In this document: one piece after another, positions 34,721 through 37,838 of the stretch
Numbering within the stretch: the stretch's first letter is position 1
Layout of the letters: each line of letters starts with the position of its first letter
Assembly: GCF_003334385.1 (NCBI RefSeq)
Contig: NZ_QOWN01000004.1
From: Escherichia coli
Lineage (GTDB): Bacteria > Pseudomonadota > Gammaproteobacteria > Enterobacterales > Enterobacteriaceae
Length of the DNA stretch: 64,000 nucleotides
Direction: 5' to 3' (one strand)
Position numbers and translations under genes: made by a program
Notes under the pieces: model-generated
The model's input: only the letters and a program-made list of their open reading frames with translations
The model's database searches: none
What the model was told of the DNA's origin: nothing

Positions 34721-35857
34721 CAGGCGTCACGCGGTAACCCTTTTTCAATCACCCGAACCAGACGCTGTTTTTTCGGCAATTGCACTTCGACTATGCACGC
34801 ATTTCGTCTCTCTATTTGCTGCGCAATCGCCCACGCTATGTGCTCATCGAGAAGTGGGAGCTCACCTTTACGACTTTCCAGCGCTGTCAAAATCGTTTCA
34901 TCCCAAGGGGCATTGCCTAATGCTACGGCGATATTACGCAGCCAACGCAGGTGACCAATACGACGAATCGCCGATCCTTCCGTGACTTTTAAAAACTTCT
35001 CTTCGCTCCAGGCGAATAACTCAATGAGTTCCGGTGCGTGTAGCGGCTTACGCGGGCTGAAATCCTCTTCTGTGGTGAGTTGTGAATAGCGATTCCACGG
35101 GCAGATAAGCTGGCAGTCATCGCAACCGTAAATACGGTTTCCCATTAACGGTCGCAACTCTTCCGGGATCGCCCCTTCAAGTTCGATGGTGAGATAAGAG
35201 ATACAGCGGCGAGCATCGACGGTATATGGCTCGACGATGGCACCGGTCGGGCAAATCGTCATACAGGCCACGCATTTGCCGCATCCTTCCTCGACTGGTT
35301 GATCCACGGGCAGCGGAATATCGACCAGCAATTCGCCTAAAAAGAAGAACGAACCGGCCTCGCGATTGAGGATAAGTGAGTGCTTACCTGTCCAGCCGAG
35401 CCCAGCTTTTTCAGCTAACGGGCGCTCGAGAATAGGCGCAGAATCGACAAACGGTCTAAAATTCAGCGAAACACAATGTTGCTGAATCATCTCGCCCAGC
35501 TTTTTGAGTCGGTTGCGCAGAAGTTTGTGATAGTCACGGCCCAGCGCATAACGGCTAACATAGCCGAGTTTGGGGTTTTTCAGCGTGCTGGCAAATGCGG
35601 CGTTAGCAGGAAGGTAATTCATCCGCACGCTGATCACGCGCAGCGTACCGGGCAATAACTCATGAGGGCGAGCGCGCAGCATACCGTGACGTGCCATCCA
35701 GTCCATTTCGCCGTGGTATTGTTTGTCCAGCCATGCTTGCAGTTTGGGCTCGGACTCGCTGAGATCGGTATCGGTAATACCTACCTGCTGAAAGCCCAGT
35801 TCCAGCCCCCACTGTTTAATTTTTTGCGCTAACTGATTGAGATCGAGGGGCTCTGAC

Positions 35858-35859
<2 letters not shown>
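34720..35859 (-). CDS. queG: epoxyqueuosine reductase (4Fe-4S, cobalamin-dependent)
   Basis: ORF-track ORF 34720..35967; start at [23 protein letters not shown] (379 aa); ferredoxin-type CxxCxxCxxxCP motifs. Confidence 0.92.

Positions 35860-37838
<1,979 letters not shown>

Follow-up and report, generated by a model that had tools for sequence, protein, structure and literature searches.

A conserved divergent queG/nnr pair in Escherichia coli with overlapping start codons and expression signals probably carried in each other's codons

The window analysed here is a stretch of 64,000 nucleotides (nt) of Escherichia coli DNA (assembly GCF_003334385.1, contig NZ_QOWN01000004.1), in which the genes queG and nnr diverge from a single palindrome, CATG, at positions 35857-35860, the site of both start codons. 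The bases common to the two start codons are 35858-35859, giving a head-to-head overlap of 2 base pairs (bp). The genes and their start codons are as follows.

34720-35859, minus strand: queG coding sequence, epoxyqueuosine reductase, 379 amino acids (from profile, structure alignment and RefSeq)
Complement of 35857-35859, minus strand: queG ATG, first codon of the 379-residue protein
35858-37405, plus strand: nnr coding sequence, bifunctional NAD(P)HX epimerase/dehydratase, 515 amino acids (from a profile match)
35858-35860, plus strand: nnr ATG, first codon of the 515-residue protein

Both open reading frames (ORFs) of the pair are real, conserved protein-coding genes, with profile matches and homologues in the PDB. 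An NCBIfam profile search identified QueG as TIGR00276 (508.9 bits for a cut-off of 200) and Nnr as NF007856 (1028.8 bits, profile positions 1-509 matching residues 1-509), and QueG residues 6-363 align to the B. subtilis QueG structure 5d08. Nnr is encoded by the first gene of the nnr-tsaE-amiB-mutL-miaA-hfq... superoperon. Conway 2014 describes this unit, with its 14 genes and 8 promoters, as the most complex operon of the published map. The window and MG1655 share 99.98% identity over the first 50 kb, with 7 mismatches and a single 1-nt gap, and around the queG/nnr locus identity to K-12 strains reaches 100%; the window from about 34.7 kb on corresponds to MG1655 4358209 onward, and upstream of this point coordinates are shifted by 1. 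RefSeq carries the identical 2-bp overlap in MG1655, another K-12 strain, 042, 536 and FDAARGOS_1296. The original prediction, that the two ATGs share two bases inside CATG, is thus confirmed in the sequence and in RefSeq, and the arrangement is conserved in relatives.

To describe this conservation, the queG locus was taken from 80 species representatives. The CATG junction is retained in 27 of the 28 Enterobacterales representatives in which nnr adjoins queG, the ATGs of queG and nnr falling at locus positions 2501 and 2502, respectively. The genera concerned are Escherichia, Citrobacter, Enterobacter, Cedecea, Pluralibacter, Mangrovibacter, Pantoea, Serratia, Yersinia, Rahnella, Hafnia, Acerihabitans and Edwardsiella; outside the Enterobacterales, the same junction was found in two metagenome-assembled genomes, one of Tolumonas (L072) and one gammaproteobacterial (L065). 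Within E. coli, an 86-nt segment centred on the junction is identical in 4830 of 5426 complete genomes, while for control segments of equal length taken from within queG and nnr the figures are only 1469 and 1887. The occurrence of a CATG is trivial on its own; its persistence across species is not. The one exception is Kosakonia cowanii (locus L013, 2486-2502), where a 1-nt insertion in an A-run places the CATG-embedded ATG out of the nnr frame, so that nnr must start at the ATG equivalent to E. coli Met6, leaving a 14-nt spacer; the first five Nnr residues would therefore be dispensable there. This insertion could equally be a homopolymer sequencing error. In Salinivibrio, the Nnr start lies three codons ahead of the S-L-P-Q motif described below, and the queG/nnr spacer measures 53 nt.

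Promoters were sought with a purpose-made scan admitting extended -10 elements. The element assigned to queG lies within the 5' part of nnr.

35891-35901, minus strand: queG promoter, extended -10 element TGTGGTATACT, in nnr codons 12-15 (AGT ATA CCA CAC, S I P H)
35883 (approximate), minus strand: queG transcription start, with a leader of about 24 nt, from a published transcript end

Within TGTGGTATACT, TG occupies 35899-35898 and the hexamer TATACT 35896-35891, so that TGGTATACT (35899-35891) shows the TG at -15/-14 and a hexamer with T-12, A-11 and T-7 that characterise extended -10 promoters. Read on the other strand, the hexamer corresponds to nnr Ser12-Ile13 and TGn to Pro14, and the CA of His15 supplies the upstream TG. 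A transcription start at 35884 had been predicted from this -10 element beforehand, and the published end of the queG transcript, at about 35883, lies 8 nt beyond the hexamer. A PqueG deletion primer of the Kasho laboratory removes 35889-35919, which is the same element.

Analysis of the 46 gammaproteobacterial loci in which nnr is adjacent to queG revealed an extended -10 element in the same nnr codon phase in 44, for an expected few per cent, and this phase is kept at spacers ranging from -2 to about 190 nt (Aeromonas). The bases demanded by the search pattern are circular evidence; the in-phase rate, the extra conserved positions and the use of minority codons are not. Residues vary only where the promoter consensus is degenerate, with ANT encoding S, N, T or I, (T/A/C)TA encoding L or I, NCA encoding P, S, A or T, and CAN or TAT encoding H, Q or Y. 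The codons of the motif are scarce elsewhere in nnr (AGT 24%, CCA 17.5%, TTA 16%, ATA 11%), and the S-I-P-H stretch lies outside the YjeF_N domain, which starts at Nnr residue 17. TGnTAnnnT also occurs upstream of queG in 23 of 32 loci lacking an adjacent nnr, for a chance of about 0.15 per locus. In two Aeromonas loci with a spacer of 100-190 nt (L058 and L068, around 2255-2345), the extended -10 element is still found in the Nnr S-L-(P/A)-Q codons, a position that would give queG a leader of about 150-240 nt.

The locus of Pectobacterium zantedeschiae (L030) separates the two genes, an ORF of 293 amino acids (1441-2322, nnr strand) being inserted between nnr and queG. There, nnr retains S-L-P as AGC TTA CCT GAT and has lost the TG, while queG has its own TGGTAAAAT at -40, beside a 14-codon relic of the former nnr 5' end. 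Since queG keeps the promoter and nnr loses the TG once the genes are apart, the promoter appears to belong to queG and to constrain nnr. In the same region (1370-2500), the junction seems duplicated, with the relic ORF (MRNRKNAPYYLILP*) next to queG.

On the opposite strand, the distal nnr promoter lies well inside queG and faces that of queG.

35455-35462, plus strand: -10 region of the distal nnr promoter, TCTAAAAT, hexamer TAAAAT at 35457-35462, in queG Asn133-Phe134-Arg135
35470, plus strand: transcription start (A) of the nnr operon, giving a leader of about 388 nt that runs opposite queG codons 1-130
35470-35883, both strands: region of about 413 nt transcribed on both strands from face-to-face promoters, delimited by the Conway operon ends

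The hexamer is preceded by TC, with C at -13 and T at -14, and its -35 matches 3 of 6 positions. A C at -13 is a feature of sigma-S-preferred promoters. The first T of TAAAAT exists only because queG Arg135 (35455-35457) is written with the rare codon AGA. This codon is AGA in 18 of 18 Enterobacteriaceae and CGN in every other family, and the surrounding 14 nt are invariant within the Enterobacteriaceae. AGA accounts for 6% of queG Arg codons in these species, and over half of these AGA codons are codon 135 itself. A codon fixed family-wide despite its rarity points to the nnr promoter as a family-level innovation, fixed against codon preference. Here too, the start predicted beforehand from the -10 element (35469) is within 1 nt of the published one (35470). 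In vitro run-off ratios of E-sigma-S to E-sigma-70 of 1.88-2.06 were reported for yjeF, yjeE, amiB and mutL at the level of the operon (Maciag 2011), and give no more than a hint of sigma-S preference at the distal promoter. Two other candidate nnr promoters, at 35529-35534 and 35717-35722, were rejected, because synonymous changes alter their key positions and neither coincides with a published end. No Rfam family was found within 35300-36100, which includes the long nnr leader.

The published transcript coordinates were taken from Table S1 of Huang 2020, a compilation of several data sets numbered according to U00096.2; conversion to window positions uses an offset of 4356231, which was checked against the sequenced read CAUGACGGACCAUACAAUGAAG. 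With this offset, the Conway promoter at 4391701 falls at 35470, the corresponding plus-strand operon ending after rlmB with its terminator at 4408049, and the right edge of the Conway divergent-operon overlap at 4392114 falls at 35883 (Huang 2020 Table S1). Both ends are thus within 1 nt of the start sites independently predicted from the -10 elements. Double-stranded RNA (dsRNA) has been mapped to the same interval, as the Lybecker dsRNA MS-212 (35486-35869; Huang 2020 Table S1) and as the p19-captured clusters E-284 in exponential phase (35528-35876) and S-361 in stationary phase (35523-35878). These clusters consist of 21-22-nt duplexes, and the stationary-phase one is among the 20 most abundant protein-coding clusters (Huang 2020). 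ExcludonFinder (NAR 2025) lists queG-nnr as one of 16 divergent excludons of MG1655, with the overlap present in at least 50% of 58 transcriptomes. Taken from the literature, the pair therefore shows two features of a divergent excludon, transcripts overlapping at their 5' ends and dsRNA that is formed and processed by RNase III.

Signals for translation initiation were also located within the partner gene.

35845-35850, plus strand: nnr Shine-Dalgarno sequence GAGGGG, 7 nt before the ATG, pairing with the anti-Shine-Dalgarno sequence at -7.2 kcal/mol
35866-35868, minus strand: TGG, a weak Shine-Dalgarno-like element at -9 to -7 of the queG leader, duplex energy -2.2 kcal/mol

On the opposite strand, GAGGGG is queG Pro4-Leu5 (CCC CTC), and a purine-rich variant of it is retained in all Enterobacterales. 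A Dam site, GATC, lies at 35841-35844, just upstream, and is invariant in the aligned Enterobacterales, queG Asp6 always being GAT. The TGG of the queG leader corresponds to the last base of nnr codon 3 and the CA of codon 4. The amino acids encoded by these codons vary (D/G/N, then H/Q) and the nucleotides are always NNC-CAN, an invariance that would preserve TGG in the queG leader. This leader is U-rich and unstructured, with less structure than shuffled controls. It also contains an out-of-frame AUG at 35869-35867 (minus strand), 10 nt upstream of the queG AUG, which is read as CAT (His4) in nnr and begins an ORF of 18 codons running across the queG start. As a functional upstream ORF this candidate was rejected, since Pantoea and Rahnella have CTG or TTG in its place and the Shine-Dalgarno-like GGGG lies 14 nt away, at the transcript end; the AUG is probably non-functional.

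The third-position entropy, derived from a 28-species codon alignment, follows the same signals. Codons 1-10 of queG have the lowest values of the gene (0.5-0.65, for a mean of 1.23). In nnr, whose mean is 1.37, the entropy is lowest at codons 1-6 and 8-18, the 3' overlap with tsaE aside, and is exactly zero at codons 12-14. Nnr residues 5-11 are almost unconstrained, with an amino-acid entropy of 2.3-2.8 bits, and enterobacterial Nnr probably owes its N-terminal extension of 11 residues to overprinting of the queG leader.

The choice of start codons required particular attention. Divergent overlaps represent about 1% of gene overlaps (457 of 42,055 in 338 genomes) and the long ones all proved to be mis-called starts (Palleja 2008). 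Their strong under-representation is attributed to the regulatory signals that must fit upstream of each gene, and their rarity and record of mis-calling meant that the queG and nnr starts had to be tested. The queG ATG is the sole in-frame start candidate in 9 species and the nnr ATG in 8, and four species have a single candidate for both genes (L020, L022, L024 and L025: Mangrovibacter, Serratia silvae and two Rahnella). An annotation artefact at queG, with the true start at GTG 35967 or GTG 35904 and a long antisense coding overlap with nnr, is hardly credible. The E. coli queG ORF is indeed open up to GTG 35967, but stops close it upstream in 9 species, where the ATG is the only candidate, and the transcript begins at about 35883, downstream of both GTG codons, so that the first in-frame start on it is the ATG at 35859. 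QueG aligns to the family profile and to solved structures from residues 6-14 onward, and codons 2-13 include no start-type codon. A long overlap of this kind would moreover join a class made up, in databases, of mis-annotations (Palleja 2008).

For nnr, a second in-frame codon had to be considered.

35873-35875, plus strand: alternative in-frame nnr ATG (Met6), anti-Shine-Dalgarno duplex -3.2 kcal/mol

Translation of nnr might start at ATG1 (35858) and ATG6 (35873) alike, or chiefly at ATG6, in which case the overlap would be partial or absent at the protein level. We regard this as improbable, and Met6 as an unlikely main start. In its favour, Escherichia, Citrobacter and some others have the in-frame ATG6, Kosakonia cowanii uses its equivalent, and Nnr residues 1-16 lie outside the YjeF_N domain, with PDB alignments beginning later; homology to known structures starts after residue 20, and the PDB comparison therefore does not settle the N-terminus. 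No direct N-terminal data for Nnr were found in the tables searched. Against this, ATG6 pairs poorly with the anti-Shine-Dalgarno sequence (-3.2 vs -7.2 kcal/mol for ATG1), and its equivalent is GTG or TTG in some species and a non-start codon (CTG, GAG, AAG, GAA or CGG) in at least 11 of 27, whereas ATG1 is invariant. The curated enterobacterial profile NF007856 also matches Nnr from residue 1, and the absence of nnr from tetracycline-based start-site re-annotation tables counts weakly in the same direction. A TTG at 35837 was rejected as an nnr start, its anti-Shine-Dalgarno energy being +1.3 kcal/mol and the codon being absent from many species. Comparison between species and the signals in the sequence support the overlapping ATGs as the starts in use.

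Altogether, we estimate at about 85% the probability that queG and nnr form a genuine, anciently conserved divergent pair, with start codons overlapping by 2 bases and expression signals lying in each other's codons. No spacer separates the genes, and the signals of each are therefore written in the codons of its partner. The starts assumed at the outset, giving 379 and 515 residues, remain the best supported by transcript start, conservation and Shine-Dalgarno energies. The proposal that each promoter and 5' leader lies inside the other gene agrees with the -10 elements found in partner codons and with the published transcript and dsRNA maps, and both ribosome-binding sites are, as anticipated, antisense to coding DNA (GAGGGG over queG Pro4-Leu5, TGG over nnr codons 3-4). 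According to published data, the nnr transcript has a leader of about 388 nt opposite the first third of queG, the queG transcript has one of about 24 nt opposite nnr codons 1-9, and their overlap yields RNase III-type dsRNA in vivo. Since the two genes are on separate messages, no translational coupling is expected and the shared AT would have no translational meaning. Any functional coupling would instead pass through promoter collision or occlusion and antisense pairing, an antagonism of the excludon type in which an active nnr superoperon promoter could lower queG, for example in stationary phase.

Several observations weigh against this reading. The -35 elements of both promoters are poor (3 of 6 positions), and a generic promoter and terminator scan of 35400-36400, which needs a good -35, returned nothing. 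Pairing at the queG Shine-Dalgarno element is very weak (-2.2 kcal/mol), and reduced synonymous change near 5' ends commonly has other causes, such as mRNA structure. The published ends are RNA-sequencing coverage tabulated in the Huang 2020 supplement rather than primary transcription start site tables. ExcludonFinder also calls a yjeV-queG-nnr non-contiguous operon, and some nnr transcription may therefore be read-through from further upstream. Finally, the published start-site and N-terminomics tables searched had no N-terminal proteomics or initiation-profiling entry for QueG or Nnr: queG/yjeS and nnr/yjeF are without an entry in the tetracycline start-site profiling of Nakahigashi 2016 and in TRAINSPOTTER N-terminomics. 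A search for direct transcription start site or start-site entries likewise found none for either gene in the Kim 2012 and SMRT-Cappable-seq tables.

How far the overlapping transcription is regulatory is a separate matter. The overlap may be real and its transcription without regulatory effect, a neutral consequence of genome compaction and of an upstream move of the nnr start onto the queG leader, with the dsRNA being incidental. This explanation is a serious one, to which we give somewhat less than even odds. The almost unconstrained Nnr residues 5-11 are what an overprinted extension would show, relatives function with queG/nnr spacers of 3-212 nt, and Kosakonia cowanii apparently uses the downstream ATG. 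The distal nnr promoter is restricted to the Enterobacteriaceae, so the 413-nt overlap is not ancestral, and no expression data tying queG to nnr were found in the literature. Conversely, several gammaproteobacterial orders retain the pair in divergent orientation with almost no spacer, synteny is higher for excludon pairs than for other neighbours (ExcludonFinder), and the dsRNA cluster ranks in the top 20 coding clusters in stationary phase; the AGA at Arg135, fixed in 18 of 18 species, indicates selection on the promoter that produces the antisense RNA. The most far-reaching regulatory interpretation remains speculative and in our view rather doubtful. It would see a reciprocal dual-coding switch, in which an ancient queG extended -10 element, kept in a single nnr codon phase across Gammaproteobacteria, fixes S(L/I)P(H/Q) in Nnr, a sigma-S-type promoter is later made inside queG by AGA in the Enterobacteriaceae, and a 388-nt antisense RNA, made when the nnr-tsaE-...-hfq superoperon fires in stationary phase, silences queG. 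On such a switch, the antisense RNA would act on this tRNA-modification gene through RNase III and promoter collision.

The overlap of the genes, the overlap of their transcripts and the dsRNA are all already published, and the finding is in this sense known. Three aspects appear to be new, namely the retention of the queG extended -10 element in one nnr codon phase across orders, the fixed AGA codon that builds the nnr promoter, and the strong conservation of the junction within E. coli. The anciently conserved pair, as we read it, provides a verified example of the rarest class of bacterial gene overlap, for which a mis-called start need no longer be suspected, and the constraints from promoter and ribosome-binding site are readable in the neighbour's codons, including the fixed rare AGA. 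From the geometry, a standard in-frame nnr deletion would take out the queG promoter, and a queG deletion would cost nnr its Shine-Dalgarno sequence and 388-nt leader, together with the first superoperon promoter; with signals shared in this way, phenotypes of either single knockout may be compound. By the same geometry, a genome-wide recoding of AGA to CGN would destroy the TAAAAT -10 hexamer. The locus opens no new mechanism or long-standing question, and its value is mainly practical and illustrative.

Some features of the neighbourhood were recorded in addition. At the other end of nnr, a same-strand overlap of 29 nt with tsaE occupies 37377-37405, where nnr third-position variability is near zero in the last codons (few sequences align there). 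At the 3' end of queG, yjeV (plus strand, 34684-34737), an ORF of 17 amino acids, shares 18 nt with queG and appears in the list of convergent excludons. The DnaA-inactivating locus datA lies at about 34451-34720, downstream of glyVXY. Read-through transcription from the tRNA genes crosses the datA/yjeV region and may continue antisense through queG toward nnr.

The queG/nnr pair shares traits with several known systems. Same-strand overlaps of 4 nt or 1 nt (ATGA, TAATG) are similarly minimal, involve start and stop codons and act as a compaction device; nnr/tsaE, with its 29 nt, and mutL/miaA are same-strand examples in the window. Such overlaps share one mRNA and couple ribosomes, whereas queG and nnr are on different mRNAs, where no ribosome hand-over is possible. 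The queG promoter resembles the extended -10 (TGn) sigma-70 promoters in its TGnTATACT, in its poor -35 and in the position of the transcript end, 8 nt further downstream. It is likewise comparable to promoters embedded in coding sequence, its consensus being imprinted on codons with invariant T-12, A-11, T-7 and TG, but differs from them in holding one fixed antisense codon phase across several orders and in dictating S(L/I)P(H/Q) outside YjeF_N. The pR and pL promoters of coliphage 186 are reportedly a case of face-to-face promoter interference, in work by Callen, Shearwin and Egan. There, as at queG/nnr, promoters fire toward each other over a few hundred bp, a geometry from which collisions and occlusion of the weaker promoter are predicted.

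Within the window, epmB and efp form another divergent housekeeping pair with a very short spacer that is listed as a divergent excludon. The spacer, at about 17449-17490, lies between functionally linked genes (EF-P modification); at 41 bp, it leaves the start codons of epmB and efp without the overlap seen in queG/nnr. Divergent excludons such as the Listeria mogR/flagellar genes are a close parallel, with an opposite-strand 5' overlap giving dsRNA that is a substrate of RNase III; the queG-nnr overlap has itself been recovered both with p19 and by anti-dsRNA immunoprecipitation. Most of the listed E. coli excludons have an intergenic spacer, with a mean of 95 nt, while that of queG-nnr is -2 nt. 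Mutually exclusive expression is a trait of excludons, and queG-nnr is likened to them by its transcript overlap and dsRNA only.

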